Assembly: GCA_963719035.1 (NCBI GenBank)
Contig: CAVRAO010000011.1
Span: forward strand, 32,001 to 96,000
Length of the DNA stretch: 64,000 bases
Direction of reading: 5' to 3'
From: Methanobacteriota archaeon
GTDB taxonomy: Archaea; Halobacteriota; Bog-38; Methanoflorentales; Methanoflorentaceae
Made by a program: the position numbers and the translations under genes. The notes below the pieces were generated by a model. The model saw only the letters and a program-made list of their open reading frames with translations. It made no database searches and was not told where the DNA came from. Shown here one piece after another: positions 34,674 to 41,741 of this stretch (positions within the stretch are counted from its first letter, which is position 1; every line of letters begins with the position of its first letter).

Positions 34674-34747
34674 GGGCTCGTGGTCTAGCTGGTTATGACA
34701 TCGCCTTTACACGGCGAAGGTCGGGCGTTCGAATCGCCTCGAGCCCA
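34674..34747 (+). tRNA. tRNA-Val (TAC)
   Basis: GGGCTCG/CGAGCCC acceptor stem, TCGCC-TTTACAC-GGCGA anticodon arm, GTTCGAATC T-loop. Confidence 0.97.
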
Positions 34748-34993
34748 TCGTTTTTTTGAATATTGGTGGAAAAATAGGCTTCTTTTTCAATAAGGGTTCG
34801 TAACTCCCTGATTTCTTCTTCAAGAACCTCAATTCGAGCCGAAAAATCAGATTTGGCGTTTTGTTTTAACTCAACAAACGCGAAAATTTAAGCTTGTCTT
34901 TCCCTTTGTTACATATCCAAGATTCTCCATTTTTTACGGTCGTTTCCAATCTACTTGCGCAGATCGGTGCTTGGAGCGACATGTCGAAACACG

Positions 34994-35968
34994 TTAATTA
35001 TTACGTGTCACCTGTGTCCTTACATCTACTGTCTGCCCATTCGTGGTCATCATGATCGTTCCTTGCGTATCCGTCCGATATACCGTCGCGTTCACGGCAG
35101 CCAGTCGTGTCAGCGCTTGTGGCGCTGGATGGCCGTACGTGTTGTTCGCGCCGACCGAGATCACGGCGATATGTGGTGTGACCGCCCTAAGGAACGATGC
35201 ACTCGTAGCGGAGCGACTTCCGTGATGCCCCACTTTCAGCACATAAGCGCTGCAGTTGTACGTTGAGATCATATGCGCCTCAGCTGATGATTCTGCATCG
35301 CCCATCAGCAGATAGCTCACACGTTGATAAGTCACTTTAATGACTATGCTGTCATCATTATCCGGCGCATGCGTCGCGGAAATCTGCTGCAACGGATTAA
35401 TGACGAAAACAGCTGTATCCGAGTCGATGGCTATGCTGTCGCCTGCCCTCGATTTTGTGTAGGTGATGTTCTTTTGCGCGATTAACTGCAGGAACGTCGC
35501 GTACGTAGCGCTTGATTTCGGGAGCCCTACGTCATAGACGTGATCCACCTGCATTGAATCAAGAACAGTGATTAAACCGCCAACGTGATCGGAGTCTGGA
35601 TGTGTTGCGACAACCCCATTAAGACGTGTTATCCCGATAGAATGGAGATAAGCCACGACTGTGGGCCCCTCTGACTGTTTGCCGCCATCGATGAGCAGCG
35701 ATTCGTTATGTGGGAACGTCAAAAGGATAGCGTCTCCCTGCCCCACGTCGATGACTGACATAGTGAGATTCGAGCCTATCGATTGTTGGACCTGAGGGAG
35801 TTCTAAGGAAGGATTTGCCGCTGGAGTTGAACCCGACGGTGAGGTGTTCGCGGTAGGTGAGGGTGACAGCGTTGATACAGGAAACGTTATGCAACCGGCC
35901 ACAGACAGCGACGCTACGATAACAAGCACTATCGCAGCTATTGGTTTCAATTGCATACGATTATGCAA
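34994..35968 (-). CDS. ComEC/Rec2-like MBL hydrolase lipoprotein
   Basis: VAGC lipobox; DVGQGDA, THPDSDH, MGDA, KVGHHGS, YGHP. Confidence 0.9.
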   Translation of the reverse strand: MHNRMQLKPIAAIVLVIVASLSVAGCITFPVSTLSPSPTANTSPSGSTPAANPSLELPQVQQSIGSNLTMSVIDVGQGDAILLTFPHNESLLIDGGKQSEGPTVVAYLHSIGITRLNGVVATHPDSDHVGGLITVLDSMQVDHVYDVGLPKSSATYATFLQLIAQKNITYTKSRAGDSIAIDSDTAVFVINPLQQISATHAPDNDDSIVIKVTYQRVSYLLMGDAESSAEAHMISTYNCSAYVLKVGHHGSRSATSASFLRAVTPHIAVISVGANNTYGHPAPQALTRLAAVNATVYRTDTQGTIMMTTNGQTVDVRTQVTRNN

Positions 35969-36085
35969 GAGGCGACGGGTGGCTTAACTATTCCAATTAA
36001 GCAGAATGAAAAAAAGAGAGAGCATGCTACATTATTCGCGTAAAGATGCGAAAATTTTTTCCATTTAATGAACGTGATATAGTCT

Positions 36086-36298
36086 ATGAAACGACTCGTA
36101 AGGATTAAGGAGGGCAGGTGGCTGGCAGGGGTCTGCGGCGGAATCGCAAAATATTACGATATCGATCCCATCATCATTCGACTCTTATGGTTAGCCTTCA
36201 CCCTTGCATTTGGTGTTGGTCTCCTTGTCTACATCGTAGCATGGATCCTGATTCCGGAGGAGGGGGAAGAAGAAAACGTTGAAATTAATACGCTCTAG
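36086..36298 (+). CDS. PspC domain protein
   Basis: RWLAGVCGGIA..Y.ID..IIR...YIVAWILIP. Confidence 0.92.
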   Translation: MKRLVRIKEGRWLAGVCGGIAKYYDIDPIIIRLLWLAFTLAFGVGLLVYIVAWILIPEEGEEENVEINTL

Positions 36299-38874: not shown

Positions 38875-39291
38875 CTATTGAACGATAATCGTCCCCTTCT
38901 CCTGCGAGTGGATGTAGCAGTTGTAGGGATACGTTCCTGTGGTATTGAACTGATACGTATAAGTGTCGCCCGCGCCAATTAATGGCGTTGAACCGCCCTT
39001 GCTCTCTCTTGGCGGCGTTGAAAATATTGAGTTCTCTGAAAAGAGCTGATGGTCGACCGAATCGTTGTTTCTCCACGTCACATTAGCCCCTTTTTGAATC
39101 GTGAGCGAAGAAGGGTTAAAGGCATAATCGTTGATCACAACTGTATTTTGACTAGCAGTGCTAGCAACTGTGCTTGGCGTAGGGGATTGATTTGTGGTGC
39201 TTGAAGTGCAACCAGCAACGGACAAAGATGCGACCATAAGCAATAGAACGGCTATCGCGGTTATTGGTTTTAGTTGCATACGCTTATTCAA
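38875..39291 (-). CDS. Cupredoxin (plastocyanin-like) lipoprotein
   Basis: VAGC lipobox; AFNPSSLTI..VTW.N.D..H; GTYPYNCYIH. Confidence 0.88.
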   Translation of the reverse strand: MNKRMQLKPITAIAVLLLMVASLSVAGCTSSTTNQSPTPSTVASTASQNTVVINDYAFNPSSLTIQKGANVTWRNNDSVDHQLFSENSIFSTPPRESKGGSTPLIGAGDTYTYQFNTTGTYPYNCYIHSQEKGTIIVQ

Positions 39292-39506
39292 GAGGCGAAG
39301 GTTGGCTTAACAATTCCTATTCTAATTGCATTCATTCTATCATAACAACGCAAATTTTGCTGAGCCACGCGCTAGAAGACCGAAATGGTAAAAAACAGGC
39401 CGCAGCGTTTTTTAATGAAAGTAACGCCACGGAGCGATTTTGTATTCGCTTGAAACTCGCAAAAAAAGAAAGGAAGAGAGTATAACACCCCCTTTTTTAC
39501 TCAACC

Positions 39507-40157
39507 TTACGCAAACTGCAGCTGAATGTCATAGACCGTAGCCGAGGCTGATGCCATTGATGTACCGCCTGCGTAAGTAGATAGGCACATGTTTATTTGA
39601 CCTTGGCCGGGACCTGTGCTAAGGTCAAGCAACGTCGTTCTATAATGGACCACCTTTAGTGGGCTGTTGACCGCGTATGCCGAGGAGCTATCCTTCAAGT
39701 AAATAATGTGGTTCATTTGGCTGCCTGGGTTCTTAATGCTAATCGAACAAGAATGGCTATCTGGGCCAGAGCCCGAAAACTTGTATCCAAAAATTGCAGT
39801 GACGGTTACGGGCTTATTCTTCACTTTATCCCAGTTGACTAACGGATTCAGGGACCACTGCACTCCGACCCAAGCGTCACTAACAGCATAATCAGTTCCG
39901 TACGTGCCTGTCGAGCTCGAACTACTTGTGAGCTTGTTGCCATTAGAGCTAGCCGTAGCCAATTCGCCCGGACTACCCCCCATGTCACGGCCGTGGTTGT
40001 TGTATCTAAACCAAACGTTTGGCAACGGGGGCGTGACCGTGTATATGGGGCTTGACATCGTTCCAGCGTTCGTCGGTTTTCCAGCGACGGCGGTGGAGCC
40101 AAAGACGGTAAAAACCATCAGACCAATCATGCCGATTGCAACTAGTTTTCGCCTCAT
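39507..40157 (-). CDS. Secreted hypothetical protein
   Basis: Sec signal peptide, Ser/Thr-rich beta sequence, GGAG RBS. Confidence 0.75.
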   Translation of the reverse strand: MRRKLVAIGMIGLMVFTVFGSTAVAGKPTNAGTMSSPIYTVTPPLPNVWFRYNNHGRDMGGSPGELATASSNGNKLTSSSSSTGTYGTDYAVSDAWVGVQWSLNPLVNWDKVKNKPVTVTAIFGYKFSGSGPDSHSCSISIKNPGSQMNHIIYLKDSSSAYAVNSPLKVVHYRTTLLDLSTGPGQGQINMCLSTYAGGTSMASASATVYDIQLQFA

Positions 40158-40340
40158 ACGTTATTATCTCCTTGTTTCGGCGAACACGCCGTTTTTTAAA
40201 ACTGGTCAATATTCGCTCTATTCTAATAAAACTTGCTCTGTTTACATCGCTTTGTAGATAGACGCGCGAGTTATCAGCTTAGCTGATATTCTTATAAAGA
40301 AAACGCAAGCGTTATGCGCATACGCGCTGTGCCGTCAAAT

Positions 40341-41741
40341 ATGCAACATATCTGCACGCACAAAATAAGCGTTCAAAGCGCGAAACCGTCACACGCGTAT
40401 CCGATTATCAGGCTGCCGCGTGAGTTTCGCCGACTAGCGGGCACTGCCGCGAAGATTTACAAAACGATGCATAATGGCGCACTCGCGTTTTTAGTCGTGC
40501 CTAAGGACTTAAATGGTCATAAAAACGAGTTAGATACTGACATGTATGAAACGAGCCTTTACACGGCGAAGGTCGGGCGTTCGAATCGCCTCGAGCCCAT
40601 CGTTTATTTTACAATCGGCTGCACTAGAGCCGTCCATTGACGTTTTCTCGGATACGAGGATTATGGCGAAAAAGAAGCACAACAAGGATAAAAAGTTGCA
40701 CAACTCTGACGTTGTGAACAATGAGCCCGATCTTTCTTGGCAAGAACGCGTTGACTTGATTCCAGAAGATGAGGGTGAAAGTGGTTCTGAAATCTACTAC
40801 TTCACCGACGAAGACGACAATATCCACTCACGCGAATTCCTTGCTGAAGAACTCATTCCTGACGATGCTGAAGACCGGAAAGATTCATTGAAAAGAAAAC
40901 TAAGACACGAGAAGCTTCAAAGAATGAAGCCTGGCGCCGTGGAGATAGTAAACCTCGTTCCAGCATCAGGGGAAAGCAGGGGGAGATCTCTTTGCCCGTC
41001 CCAAAGTCAGGGGCACCTCCACTTGATATTCGGATATCCAGCGAAGTCGTCCCAGAGCTGTTCACCAAAAAAGAGTCGCAGAGTGATGGCGTCGAAGAGA
41101 ACAGGCAGGTCATCGTTCATCTTCAAGATCGTTCAGCTACTGATGAGCCTTCACGCACTGTCCATGATAATAACTCACGCCCCCCTCTGGTTCTTTATTT
41201 TACGCAAGCCGAACTTGAGTCTTATGTCACCTACCGCAGCGAAGGCCTTGCAGAGAAATCAAAGGATTGGATTACTCGATCTTCAGAAGCAGTATGGGAA
41301 TCGACCGCAGGTGAAATCTCTCATCAGACGATGACAGGCCTCAGAACATTTGTTCTTGAAAAATACAACTCGGCAGACTCGCATTCAAAAGTACTGAGCT
41401 TCGCAGTCGGGTTCCTCAATTTCTTGGCCCAAACGAACATCGATCCACGATACGTTTCGTTTAAGCTCTTCCTTGAAAGACCGAAGACCAAGAAAGTCAA
41501 AAAAGCGCTTACTGAAAGGATCATCACTCGCGAAGACATCGGCGCCGTGTTTCAGCATATTGCTGCAGCTGAAGAAGGGGGAACCGATCCTTCGAAGATA
41601 CGCAATTATCGCGCTTTTGCGCTCCTTGCTTCGTATACAGGGTTACGACCGAGCACATTAGAACGCTTGACGGTTGGACAGTTTAGAACTGCGCTCCGCG
41701 AGCGGAAGCCAAGCAAACCATGCTTTTCAGTGCACGAGTAA
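40341..41741 (+). pseudogene. SSV-type tyrosine integrase, frameshifted and truncated, att embedded
   Basis: YPIIRLPREF..HNGALAFLVV, then TRRRSGVRIASSP read through att, then ASYTGLRPSTL box I. Confidence 0.85.

Follow-up and report, generated by a model that had tools for sequence, protein, structure and literature searches.

A putative promoter module, often joined to a lipoprotein signal peptide and restricted to one archaeal genus, precedes unrelated envelope genes in a tRNA-Val island

In the 64,000-nucleotide stretch of DNA analysed here (the window), six copies of a ~44-bp repeat, all on the same strand, lie between two identical 48-nt att copies of tRNA-Val (Table 1), which raises the question of why one short sequence should stand before so many unrelated genes. 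The first-pass annotation read the locus as an integron-like cassette array, in which a promoter and signal-peptide module might double as a recombination site. The promoter part of that proposal is retained, as is the signal peptide for a subset of the genes, but the integron-like part is not. The repeat is not an integron site; most probably it is an archaeal promoter peculiar to one genus, which heads many unrelated envelope genes and is often accompanied by a shared lipoprotein signal peptide. As an explanation of the whole we consider this promoter and signal-peptide reading probable.

Table 1. Features of the tRNA-Val island and its surroundings (window positions)
Feature	Position	Strand	Evidence and remarks
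tRNA-Val (anticodon TAC)	34674..34747	+	ARAGORN; Rfam tRNA 64.6 bits
att copy 1	34703-34750	+	tRNA-Val 3' part from 34703; direct repeat D6
tRNA-side arm of island	34751..34868		conserved in congener G007 with different cargo adjoining
MBL-fold lipoprotein	34994..35956	-	PF00753 (Lactamase_B) 49.3 bits; signal MQLKPIAAI...AGC
r1	35957..36001	-	putative promoter module; ATG at model +47; pattern, repeat-family and nhmmer searches
PspC-domain membrane protein	36086..36298	+	PF04024 86.9 bits
179-aa lipoprotein, unknown family	36295..36834	-	ORF; QLKPITAI signal
49-aa two-helix membrane protein	36851..37000	-	ORF; ATG at model +61 behind r2
r2	37015..37059	-	pattern, repeat-family and nhmmer searches
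Ig-like (Big_3_5) lipoprotein gene, out of frame	37220..37631	-	ORF, Pfam, paralogue comparison
r3	37632..37676	-	pattern, repeat-family and nhmmer searches
Zn-ribbon membrane protein	37676..38218	-	PF13240 (Zn_Ribbon_1) 29.5 bits; ATG at model +81 behind r4
r4, divergent copy	38253..38297	-	3 mismatches; 62% identity to reference; nhmmer E = 8e-5
Two small membrane-protein genes	38523-38690, 38304-38480	-	ORFs
r5	38825..38869	-	pattern and repeat-family searches
Cupredoxin lipoprotein	38875..39279	-	PF00127 (Copper-bind) 45.8 bits; Cupredoxin_1 also supported
r6	39280..39324	-	pattern, repeat-family and nhmmer searches
216-aa secreted protein, unknown family	39507..40157	-	ORF, no Pfam family
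Far arm of island	40340..40554	+	multi-copy sequence adjoining att copies throughout genus
att copy 2	40555..40602	+	duplicate of tRNA-Val 3' part
Tyrosine integrase N-terminal fragment	40992..41741	+	stops shortly past conserved Arg region
Extra repeat copy, off-island	55395..55438	+	nhmmer; heads Zn-ribbon membrane gene 55446-55817 (PF13240)

Seven matches to the earlier pattern (at most three mismatches) were found in the window versus 0.02 expected (100 shuffles). Six of them are on the minus strand of the island, one divergent, as originally described; the seventh (11047, plus strand) is unrelated. The repeat search groups r1-r6 as a single 45-nt family with pairwise identities of 49-91%. 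Two copies had been reported to begin within 10 bp of the preceding stop codon, and this was confirmed: r3 shares with the Zn-ribbon gene (ORF 37676..38233) the final base of its stop codon, and r5 starts 5 nt past the stop of the cupredoxin gene (ORF 38875..39291), leaving no room for another promoter. No ATG-started ORF of at least 35 aa is present within 200 nt of r5.

The statement that the repeat precedes each gene does not apply to the 179-aa lipoprotein gene, in which the repeat is reduced to its last ~8 nt, with ACG where the family has ATG; this gene, whose product has no Pfam family and no Atlas match, probably belongs to the same operon as its upstream neighbour. Each of the two small membrane-protein genes has its own 34-nt repeat before it (direct repeat D10), the gene of the 216-aa protein has an AT-rich upstream region of its own without the repeat, and the PspC-domain gene is the sole plus-strand gene of the cargo. 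ORF translations corroborate the signal (M)QLK(P/L)I(T/A)AI...GC in four genes with different mature domains (MBL-fold, 179-aa, Ig-like and cupredoxin). The Ig-like gene does carry this signal, as annotated, but its reading frame is broken; it consists of the 5' module and a 3' part (37218-37478) 98% identical to a paralogue with a different signal peptide (C8:223710-223970), and Big_3_5 reaches 26 bits, under the Pfam cut-off of 35.5.

The setting between att repeats and beside an integrase fragment was correctly recognised at first reading: the att copies agree at 48 of 48 positions, and the ORF at 40992-41741 shows 53% identity over 192 aa (tblastn) to the full-length tyrosine integrase on C2 of the same genome. 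A possible C-terminal integrase piece lies 18 kb off, at 59873-60217. Islands at tRNA genes that have no integrase of their own and stand in tandem with an integrase-bearing element are cis-mobilizable, CIME-like arrangements. The present locus resembles them in that 5.85 kb is bounded by a duplicated tRNA 3' segment with the integrase gene after the second att, in the conserved arms adjoining both att copies and in its absence from the corresponding site of congeners, and differs from them in that the resident integrase is a fragment. The 5.85 kb between the att copies are probably an island that lacks an integrase, and next to it, in tandem, stands an older element that bears one. On the tRNA side, 34868-34697 matches G007:C178 (1-172) at 83%, with other cargo beside the same arm in G007, and homology is lost at about 34868 in contigs of runs X1 and X6 and in locus L152. 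The far arm has matches to query positions 5641-5921 in many genomes of the genus, and the ORF overlapping it (40314-40640) gave no family match. Among the nine congener loci reaching beyond tRNA-Val, an integrase follows the tRNA directly in six and the island cargo is present in none, locus L016 having signal-peptide-only matches (28-31 aa).

An archaeal leaderless core promoter comprises a BRE, a proximal element and, some 26-27 bp before the start, a TATA box. In the conservation profile of 61 distinct copies, the 30 columns upstream of the repeat hold at most 0.2 bit, model positions 4-44 hold 0.4-2.0 bits in all but one column (0.1 bit), and conservation decays after 44, so that a block of about 41 nt ends just before the start codon. 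As in archaeal leaderless promoters, three conserved blocks lie ahead of the ATG, at about -41 to -34, -32 to -24 and -13 to -5, and the end of the repeat block coincides with the predicted start. The repeat would be a complete core promoter, with ATAGGAAT at the BRE, GTTAAGCCA at the TATA-box and CTTGCATAA at the proximal position. On the same strand, 55 of the 61 copies are followed within 200 nt by an ORF that begins with ATG and codes for 35 aa or more; its ATG is at +47 in 23 copies and at +46 to +48 in 25. An ATG at +47 places TTAAGC at -31, and the invariant GTTAAGCC falls at the TATA-box position of this genome's leaderless genes: in a survey of 1,663 long ORFs, the count of TATA-like hexamers is highest at -30, with 28 against about 6-13 between -60 and -45, and that of SD-like pentamers at -12. 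The initial remark that GTTAAG sits at TATA-box distance from the ATG is therefore upheld. From this geometry we infer promoter activity and a transcription start (+1) that coincides with the A of the ATG or lies only a few bases from it, so that the mRNA would be leaderless; for genes whose start codon is more distant, a short mRNA led by a Shine-Dalgarno sequence would be expected. Copies with a distant start have AAAGGAGGTG before the ATG, complementary to GGATCACCTCC upstream of tRNA-Ala (TGC) at C8:139833, which is assumed to be the 16S 3' end. For the largest gene family, promoter, start codon and export/lipidation signal would together make up the unit.

The repeat also departs from archaeal leaderless promoters, since the element at the TATA position is nearly invariant with a G+C-rich 3' half, and all 41 nt are conserved. 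Moreover, GTTAAGCC is a poor match to the genome's usual TATA boxes, which before its tRNA genes are TTTATATA- or TTAATATA-like. Near-continuous conservation over ~41 nt exceeds what a core promoter usually requires, and something else may therefore bind, be it a dedicated regulator, a TBP/TFB paralogue or a recombinase. The extra conservation could mean that the same promoter contains an operator or that its TATA box is of a non-standard kind, through which a dedicated regulator or one of several TBP paralogues of the genus would govern a co-regulated envelope regulon. This proposal refines the promoter reading and is compatible with it, and we advance it tentatively. It is consistent with the 1.2-2.0 bits of GTTAAGCCA (61 copies) and the length of the block, with every identifiable product being an exported or membrane protein, and with genome G000 having three intact TBP genes plus fragments, two of them near motif loci and integrase remnants, TBP matches being more numerous in the genus than in its sister genus; conserved operators are also described for Borrelia erp promoters (PMC10016077). 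Against it, G017 contains five TBP genes (10 domain matches) and no motif copy (15-nt core, one mismatch), indicating that TBP number does not track the motif, and no regulator gene was found in consistent linkage with the copies.

Could the repeat instead be a site-specific recombination site of attC/attI type, through which the neighbouring tyrosine integrase captures, excises and reorders cassettes of repeat plus gene? Like integrons, including those of archaeal MAGs, the locus combines short repeats in the same direction, small unrelated genes, a tyrosine recombinase nearby and strain-variable gene content; GTTAAGC, read directly, is consistent with GTTRRRY, and repeat clusters are enriched within 10 kb of integrase remnants (6/10 versus 1.5 expected, P about 0.0016). 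Cassettes of integrons mostly lack a promoter and have attC downstream, whereas here the repeat is upstream of each gene at a fixed ATG distance and, to judge from its promoter geometry, supplies the gene's promoter. No integron integrase was recognised (best TIGR02249 score 46 bits against a cut-off of 265), a common hairpin was absent from both strands (z below -2 in just one of six copies), and, in agreement with the earlier reader, who saw no matching RYYYAAC arm, a partner was found in one of six copies (one pair in the island versus 0.65 expected). The integrase has the 3' half of tRNA-Val as its own att, which the repeat resembles at chance level (11/13, equalled by 34 of 300 shuffled att sequences), and no integrase-family match occurs within 10 kb of four of the ten clusters. 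Three criteria for integrons are given in PMC9668308, namely an IntI with its additional domain, attC sites that fold as single strands, and clusters of attC; none of these was found here. We regard a recombination-site function of this kind as very improbable.

Strain comparisons had been suggested as a check for breakpoints at the repeat. A close-strain contig (97-98% identical) joins 35998 to 37677 and lacks 1,678 bp that start with r3 and end just before r1, being bounded by the 5' edges of both, which is exactly what a cassette-type mechanism would predict. Genomes also differ in gene order, and their homology ends at repeat edges or close to them; in G015 the first ~10 nt of r5 are retained after the cupredoxin stop before divergence, and G007:C78 has the repeat and cupredoxin gene at 91% identity. 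Breakpoints at edges are nevertheless weak evidence, because such similar copies let alignments run to the far edge of the repeat wherever the crossover lay, and broken or truncated copies end at scattered positions (about 13, 23, 24, 31 and 38) rather than at a single crossover point.

On the promoter and signal-peptide reading, new combinations would be produced by ordinary recombination without site specificity, either within the linker or in the repeat and its surroundings, and direct repeats of the module would let complete gene units drop out or be acquired. The repeat heads four kinds of genes, coding for two lipoprotein families, Zn-ribbon membrane proteins and small membrane proteins: 27 have an MQLK-type signal, eight an MMKRY-type signal, seven are Zn-ribbon genes and 13 are others, mostly small membrane proteins. 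The Pfam domains behind it are cupredoxin, fasciclin, PQQ propeller, Mo-oxidoreductase, ion channel, MBL and PsbP-like. In the largest family homology runs into the lipoprotein signal MQLKPITAI...AGC and the start of a Ser/Thr/Pro-rich linker. MBL orthologues (76-89% aa identity) have other signal peptides, with the repeat directly before none of the 13 metagenome loci holding the gene 5' end, and DNA homology to the window begins near 35845, about 18 codons past the lipobox Cys. Orthologous mature domains with other signal peptides elsewhere indicate that the 5' module was swapped. The cell-envelope genes that the module heads are unrelated to each other, and many are carried by tRNA-integrated elements.

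The best reading is a promoter and signal-peptide module much like that of the erp genes of Borrelia burgdorferi. These OspE/F-related lipoprotein genes ('upstream homology box') of cp32 prophages join a conserved promoter/operator, leader peptide and first mature residues to mature parts of many independent origins, and recombine with one another on mobile elements (PMC10016077). Here, similarly, promoter block, signal peptide and linker start are shared before unrelated mature domains, and repeat loci are enriched at integrase-marked islands. The differences are that the host is an archaeon with a predicted TBP-type promoter and probably leaderless mRNAs, that the same promoter also heads genes without the leader peptide (Zn-ribbon, small membrane proteins), and that the genes are chromosomal island cargo and not one allelic site on a prophage.

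The module is restricted to one genus of uncultured archaea. Genome-wide, nhmmer found 25 copies (E<0.1) on six of 13 contigs; with at most three mismatches the repeat occurs in 12 of 17 congeners, in none of six sister-genus genomes and in none of 383 genomes of the phylum outside the genus, and a reversed-pattern control gave no matches. The first-pass annotation had named as contrary evidence a genome-wide family of promoters and 5' ends with no clustering near integrases; the profile scan recovered the genome-wide 5'-end family, yet its clusters are enriched near integrase remnants, so that one half of that description applies. The genome also has near-identical duplicated regions (C5 and C12; the ends of C6 and C11). 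Such duplicates, with the paralogous signal peptides and 110-nt homology blocks (D3-D5), would also suit functionless copies left by a recent duplication of one gene's 5' region, or a MITE-like element, which we think hardly likely: the block has a sharp 5' limit, precedes non-homologous genes and is kept in 13 species even though their Asd proteins share no more than 89-95% identity. The signal-peptide codons differ at synonymous sites, while the block ahead of them is constant. Purifying selection between species already seems indicated for the block, and the hairpin search of the copies revealed no terminal inverted repeats. The relatives are listed as Methanomicrobia, Halobacteriota, Methanobacteriota or Euryarchaeota MAGs, some with isolate names that include bog, fen or SPRUCE.

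We analyzed the anatomy of the repeat on 61 distinct copies from the source genome and the fetched stretches of its relatives, a subset of all copies found. The 30 columns upstream of the repeat hold no more than 0.2 bit, and model positions 4-44 hold 0.4-2.0 bits at all except one (0.1 bit), the strongest blocks being ATAGGAAT at positions 6-13, the almost invariant GTTAAGCCA at positions 15-23 (1.2-2.0 bits) and C..CTTGCATAA at positions 31-42. Beyond position 44 the conservation drops off, except in genes of the lipoprotein family. Within 200 nt of 55/61 copies, on the same strand, an ORF of 35 aa or more begins with ATG; this ATG is at exactly +47 in 23 of the 61 and at +46 to +48 in 25. 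With the ATG at +47, TTAAGC begins at -31 relative to the start codon; among 1,663 long ORFs of the source genome the TATA-like hexamers are most frequent at -30 and the Shine-Dalgarno-like words at -12, and the invariant block therefore occupies the TATA-box place of leaderless genes. Copies with a more distant gene start carry AAAGGAGGTG ahead of the ATG, matching GGATCACCTCC, which was read upstream of tRNA-Ala (TGC) at C8:139833 and which we interpret as the 3' end of 16S.

The textbook geometry of an archaeal core promoter consists of BRE, TATA box, proximal element and leaderless start. The repeat presents an element in the TATA position ~24-32 nt before the start, a block in the BRE position before it, and a conserved stretch that stops at +1, the predicted transcription start. 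Furthermore, two island repeats begin at, or 5 nt past, the stop codon of the preceding gene, therefore leaving no room for another promoter. The geometry and limits of the block, together with this lack of space, lead us to read the repeat as a full core promoter, in which BRE-position, TATA-position and proximal elements would give rise to a leaderless mRNA. Judged from sequence, the repeat is probably a promoter/signal-peptide module, whose TATA-position element is unusual and nearly invariant and whose mRNA is probably leaderless. A bacterial sigma-70 promoter scan, irrelevant for an archaeon, stayed at chance level (11 vs 10.1 expected).

The products of the repeat-headed genes fall into four groups: 27 with an MQLKPITAI-type signal (24/27 with a lipobox), 8 with a second lipoprotein signal, MMKRYIKMPLK...GC (6/8 with a lipobox), 7 Zn-ribbon membrane proteins and 13 others, small membrane proteins for the most part. 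The lipobox was sought with the loose pattern [LVIAFTM][ASTVIG][GAS]C within residues 11-45; VAGC, IAGC and VSGC also match a published form, [L/V/I][A/S/T/V/I][G/A/S]C (PMC12462473), and AVGC of the Ig-like gene does not. The MQLK- and MMKRY-type products, with a hydrophobic N-terminus ending in the lipobox Cys, are predicted lipoproteins. A Pfam scan of 42 products behind the module identified, among others, cupredoxin, fasciclin, PQQ propeller, molybdopterin oxidoreductase, ion channel, MBL, PsbP-like and Ig-like domains. The feature common to the repeat-headed products is the cell envelope, and the repeat also holds the driving position ahead of genes with no leader peptide (Zn-ribbon and small membrane proteins).

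A profile search of the source genome (2.19 Mb in 13 contigs, 91% complete), a check proposed by the first-pass annotation, retrieved 25 copies (E<0.1) spread over six contigs, 21 of them with E<0.001 and forming 10 clusters. Among relatives, a 34-nt pattern with up to three mismatches was found in 12/17 congeners, at 1 to 29 copies per genome, in 0/6 sister-genus genomes and in 0/383 genomes searched outside the genus, and the reversed pattern gave zero matches as a control. The 15-nt core at one mismatch was absent from five congeners, including one single-contig genome 91% complete. The source genome encodes TBP and is hence archaeal. The relatives' loci encode an Asd protein 89-95% identical, and several come from isolates named after bog, fen or SPRUCE. 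Repeat-headed genes also occur in two pairs of near-duplicate regions of the source genome (Table), which may be true duplications or one region assembled twice.

In the 64-kb window the pattern of the first-pass annotation has 7 matches at up to three mismatches, against 0.02 expected. Six of them constitute one 45-nt direct-repeat family with a pairwise identity of 49-91%, arrayed in the same direction between the att copies of the tRNA-Val island, as had been described. The seventh match is unrelated; it has 3 mismatches and ~40 nt in common with C8:175819 of the source genome and is otherwise unlike the repeat. The cargo listed at first reading was borne out by ORFs and Pfam, and comprises lipoproteins with MBL-fold, Ig-like (Big_3_5, at a sub-threshold Pfam score) and cupredoxin domains, a further lipoprotein of 179 aa, a Zn-ribbon membrane protein and three small membrane proteins. 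Two more genes came to light, for a 216-aa secreted protein that has its own upstream region and for a PspC-domain protein on the opposite strand. The first-pass account needs correction at two points: the reading frame of the Ig-like gene is broken, and of the repeat the 179-aa gene retains no more than the final ~8 nt, with ACG where its paralogues have ATG. No RNA besides the tRNA was found with Rfam (E up to 0.1) between 30000 and 45000, and among ten island and element proteins searched against PHROGs the integrases alone rose above noise. In the ESM Atlas the 216-aa protein reached a best score of 0.83 and the 179-aa protein had no match. Two small membrane-protein genes are preceded by a 34-nt direct repeat that differs from the main repeat, and behind the Ig-like gene lies a T-rich stretch that may be a terminator and that recurs upstream of the repeat in other genomes (loci L105, L108 and L122). 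A tandem duplication of 26 nt lies outside the island.

Positions of the features discussed (window coordinates, or a contig of the source genome where one is named)
Feature	Position	Strand	Remark
Duplicated 3' part of tRNA-Val(TAC), att copies	34703-34750; 40555-40602		48/48 identical
tRNA-side arm of island	34751-34868
Start of DNA homology with MBL orthologues	near 35845
Repeat array, six copies	35957-39324	-
Repeat r1	35957-36001	-
Repeat r2	37015-37059	-
Repeat r3	37632-37676	-
Repeat r5	38825-38869	-
Repeat r6	39280-39324	-
T-rich stretch	37125-37179	-
Ig-like gene, 3' part	37218-37478
Small membrane-protein genes	38304-38480; 38523-38690
34-nt direct repeat	38488-38521; 38733-38766		76% identity
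Far end of island	40340-40554
Integrase, N-terminal fragment	40992-41741
Seventh pattern match	11047-11074	+
Tandem duplication of 26 nt	31851-31902		96% identity
Bacteriorhodopsin-like protein	51242-51850	+	202 aa; PF01036 at 96 bits
Polyprenyl synthetase	52505-53392
UbiA-type prenyltransferase	53719-54663
Photolyase-related protein	58300-59454
Tandem integrase C-terminal fragments	59834-60205; 60724-60786; 61252-61436; 61823-61921	+	four fragments
ORF resembling the missing integrase C-terminal part	59873-60217		18 kb from the N-terminal fragment
Second tRNA-Val (CAC) island (locus L125)	C2:8000-19000
Full-length integrase	C2:16701-18014
Nearly full-length integrase	C2:147824-148744
Near-duplicate pair	C5:9224-9880; C12:51677-52340
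Near-duplicate pair	C6:217945-218311; C11:116307-116676
TBP genes	C8:39166-39687; C6:33667-34188; C6:210345-210866; C11:120561-121076		three intact, one fragmented

An integron has IntI, a tyrosine recombinase with an additional domain of its own, attC sites whose imperfect inverted repeats (R''/L''...L'/R') form single-strand hairpins, and mostly promoterless cassettes with attC downstream and expression from Pc. The defining features tested here follow PMC9668308, whose supplementary data include a list of archaeal MAGs with integrons. In the 91%-complete source genome the best match to TIGR02249 scored 46 bits against a cut-off of 265, the matches being Xer-like genes on C8. DNA folds of 60 nt around the six copies on both strands gave z below -2 in 1/6 and no common structure. 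A RYYYAAC site 33-153 nt upstream of the repeat was found for 1/6 copies, and core pairs in the island numbered 1 vs 0.65 expected from shuffles. The repeat lies upstream of ORFs, not downstream of a promoterless one as in integron order. On the negative outcome for IntI, hairpin and paired core site the integron reading is rejected, and the suggestion of the first-pass annotation that the repeat may double as a recombination site of an integron-like array is not supported. Unlike integrons, the array has none of the defining features tested (IntI, attC fold, site 3' of the cassette).

A site-specific cassette mechanism acting at the repeat could still be proposed from strain variation at the repeats, a check suggested by the first-pass annotation. 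Contigs of two sequencing runs (X6, 1,426 nt; X1, 1,425 nt) match the window at 97-98% identity and pass from 35998 to 37677, placing four other letters at the joint; the X6 contig aligns over 882 nt with 19 differences and then over 540 nt with 18. The absent 1,678 bp opens with one repeat and stops just short of another, so that in the strain with this joint the Zn-ribbon gene is directly followed by r1 and the MBL gene, without r3, the Ig-like gene, r2, a 49-aa gene, the 179-aa gene and the PspC gene. This indel is consistent with entire gene units being lost or acquired between direct repeats, and may equally stem from a deletion in the other strain or from an insertion in the window. The repeats are all alike, and therefore the alignments extend to the far repeat edge regardless of the crossover position. 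Damaged copies end at scattered positions: one congener (G015) retains ~10 nt of r5, truncated repeats stop after positions 23, 24 and 31, and the 179-aa gene keeps the part from ~position 38 only. With the missing integron integrase, common fold and inverse core site, and with the repeat on the wrong side of the genes for integron cassettes, a site-specific mechanism is very improbable. A likeness between the repeat centre and the tRNA-Val att (11/13 identical) is at chance level, being reached by 34/300 shuffled att sequences.

Only the joint 35998>37677 was relied on in this comparison, in which the best DNA run shares 0.36 of the query words. The joints 35957>39283, 35949>39285, 36805>39284, 39320>38293 and 39323>37125 have short sides (20-35 nt) or 90% likeness and probably represent paralogues or other organisms. 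The T-rich stretch is a recurrent breakpoint in other samples, with joints at 37125.

The island works like a tRNA-borne island that lacks an integrase of its own. The tRNA 3' segment stands as a direct repeat at both ends, a tyrosine integrase is at the site, and the cargo is absent at the same site in relatives: nine congener loci extending past tRNA-Val contain none of it, save signal-peptide-only matches (28-31 aa) in one locus (L016). A same-family integrase follows the tRNA directly in 6/9 of these loci, an inverted one is found in 1/9 and none lies within the locus in 2/9. The integrase fragment adjoining the array, noticed at first reading, is a truncated N-terminal part. At its far end the island consists of a multi-copy sequence that accompanies att copies across the genus, and the tRNA-side arm recurs in a congener (G007) adjoining other cargo. 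We infer that an integrase-less island may have integrated in tandem ahead of an older integrase-bearing element, whose integrase is now truncated.

The integrase family (PF00589 at only 27.3 bits; phrog_1/phrog_216) has 25 merged loci in the source genome, with one full copy beside tRNA-Val(CAC) on C2, a nearly full-length one on the same contig and fragments otherwise. Six of the 10 repeat clusters are no more than 10 kb away from such a locus vs 1.5 expected (P ~0.0016), and four within 5 kb vs 0.9 expected, two of the 10 (C5 and C12:52 kb) being possibly one region assembled twice. This enrichment therefore marks the repeat-headed genes as typical island cargo, but the other four clusters have no family match within 10 kb. 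The first-pass annotation had set against its own reading a repeat that is just the 5' end of a genome-wide paralogue family, with no clustering near integrases; a genome-wide promoter/5' end is indeed what we found, whereas the clustering is present. Short C-terminal fragments of the integrase (~20-125 aa) are scattered over the window, C2, C5, C8, C11 and C12, including four in tandem in the window. In the second tRNA-Val island, on C2, the 438-aa ORF of a full-length integrase overlaps with the end of the tRNA. Behind it come unknown genes, a C-terminal fragment of an integrase and two lipoprotein genes headed by the repeat, of which one encodes a molybdopterin-oxidoreductase domain.

A signal shared by different mature domains had been noted at first reading, and unrelated Pfam domains do stand behind one module, with the MBL and Ig-like domains also found behind other signal peptides. 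Orthologues of the island MBL protein occur at 15 metagenome loci (76-89% identity); the 5' end of the gene is included in 13/15, and the repeat stands directly in front in 0/13. Their signal peptides differ (e.g. MGTDKRILRVLL...AAGC and MKQIVPIVVVV...AAGC), and their DNA homology with the window starts only ~18 codons past the lipobox Cys, in a Ser/Thr/Pro-rich linker. The 3' part of the Ig-like gene is 98% identical to a C8 gene with a different signal peptide and a long Thr-Pro linker, and its 5' part is similar to a C12 paralogue; the copy in the island has a shortened linker, and its two parts do not share a reading frame. Cupredoxin paralogues match only from ~39 codons downstream of the ATG. 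The different signal peptides on the MBL and Ig-like domains and the homology starting in the linker thus suggest that the module is grafted on and off by linker recombination.

Such grafting of a promoter and leader is already known from the Borrelia erp genes, in which, as outlined in PMC10016077, a single set of promoter, leader and localisation sequence precedes many external parts that are unrelated to each other. The repeat works like erp, without implied homology, in that a conserved promoter and leader are joined to mature parts of independent origin. What is new, and unlike erp, is that the module is archaeal and probably leaderless, with an unusual and nearly invariant TATA-position element, and that the same promoter also serves genes lacking a leader peptide. 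A limited look at the literature on this lineage and on archaeal lipoprotein families revealed no comparable archaeal report.

It is possible, albeit unlikely, that the block of promoter, leaderless start and lipoprotein signal goes beyond regulation and functions as the unit of a cassette system. Copies in the same direction would then permit deletion, duplication and movement of promoter-plus-gene units between integrase-less islands, and recombination in low-complexity linkers would attach the module to new domains, giving rise to new archaeal surface proteins in a manner similar to exon shuffling. In its boldest form a dedicated DNA-binding factor, be it a regulator, one of the TBP/TFB paralogues or the island integrase, would recognise the GTTAAGCCA core and couple expression to rearrangement. 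Two of the TBP copies in the source genome lie near integrase remnants and repeat loci, and TBP domain matches number 2-10 per genus genome (up to 5 genes) vs 0-4 in the sister genus. The TBP-paralogue idea is not supported, since these matches do not follow the repeat counts in 24 genomes of the family; one congener (G017) has 10 matches (5 genes), yet no repeat even with the 15-nt core at one mismatch.

If the promoter/signal-peptide reading holds, an uncultured group of archaea would have a sharply defined natural promoter class, represented ~25 times in a single genome. It would be a candidate for strong or regulated expression of envelope genes, and its near-invariant and unusual TATA-position element would be a test case for specific archaeal promoter recognition. 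Archaeal surface lipoproteins could then diversify by grafting an expression-and-export module onto unrelated domains, and short-repeat arrays beside integrases need not be integrons.

Elsewhere in the window, a gene for a bacteriorhodopsin-like protein lies near genes for a polyprenyl synthetase, a UbiA-type prenyltransferase and a photolyase-related protein.
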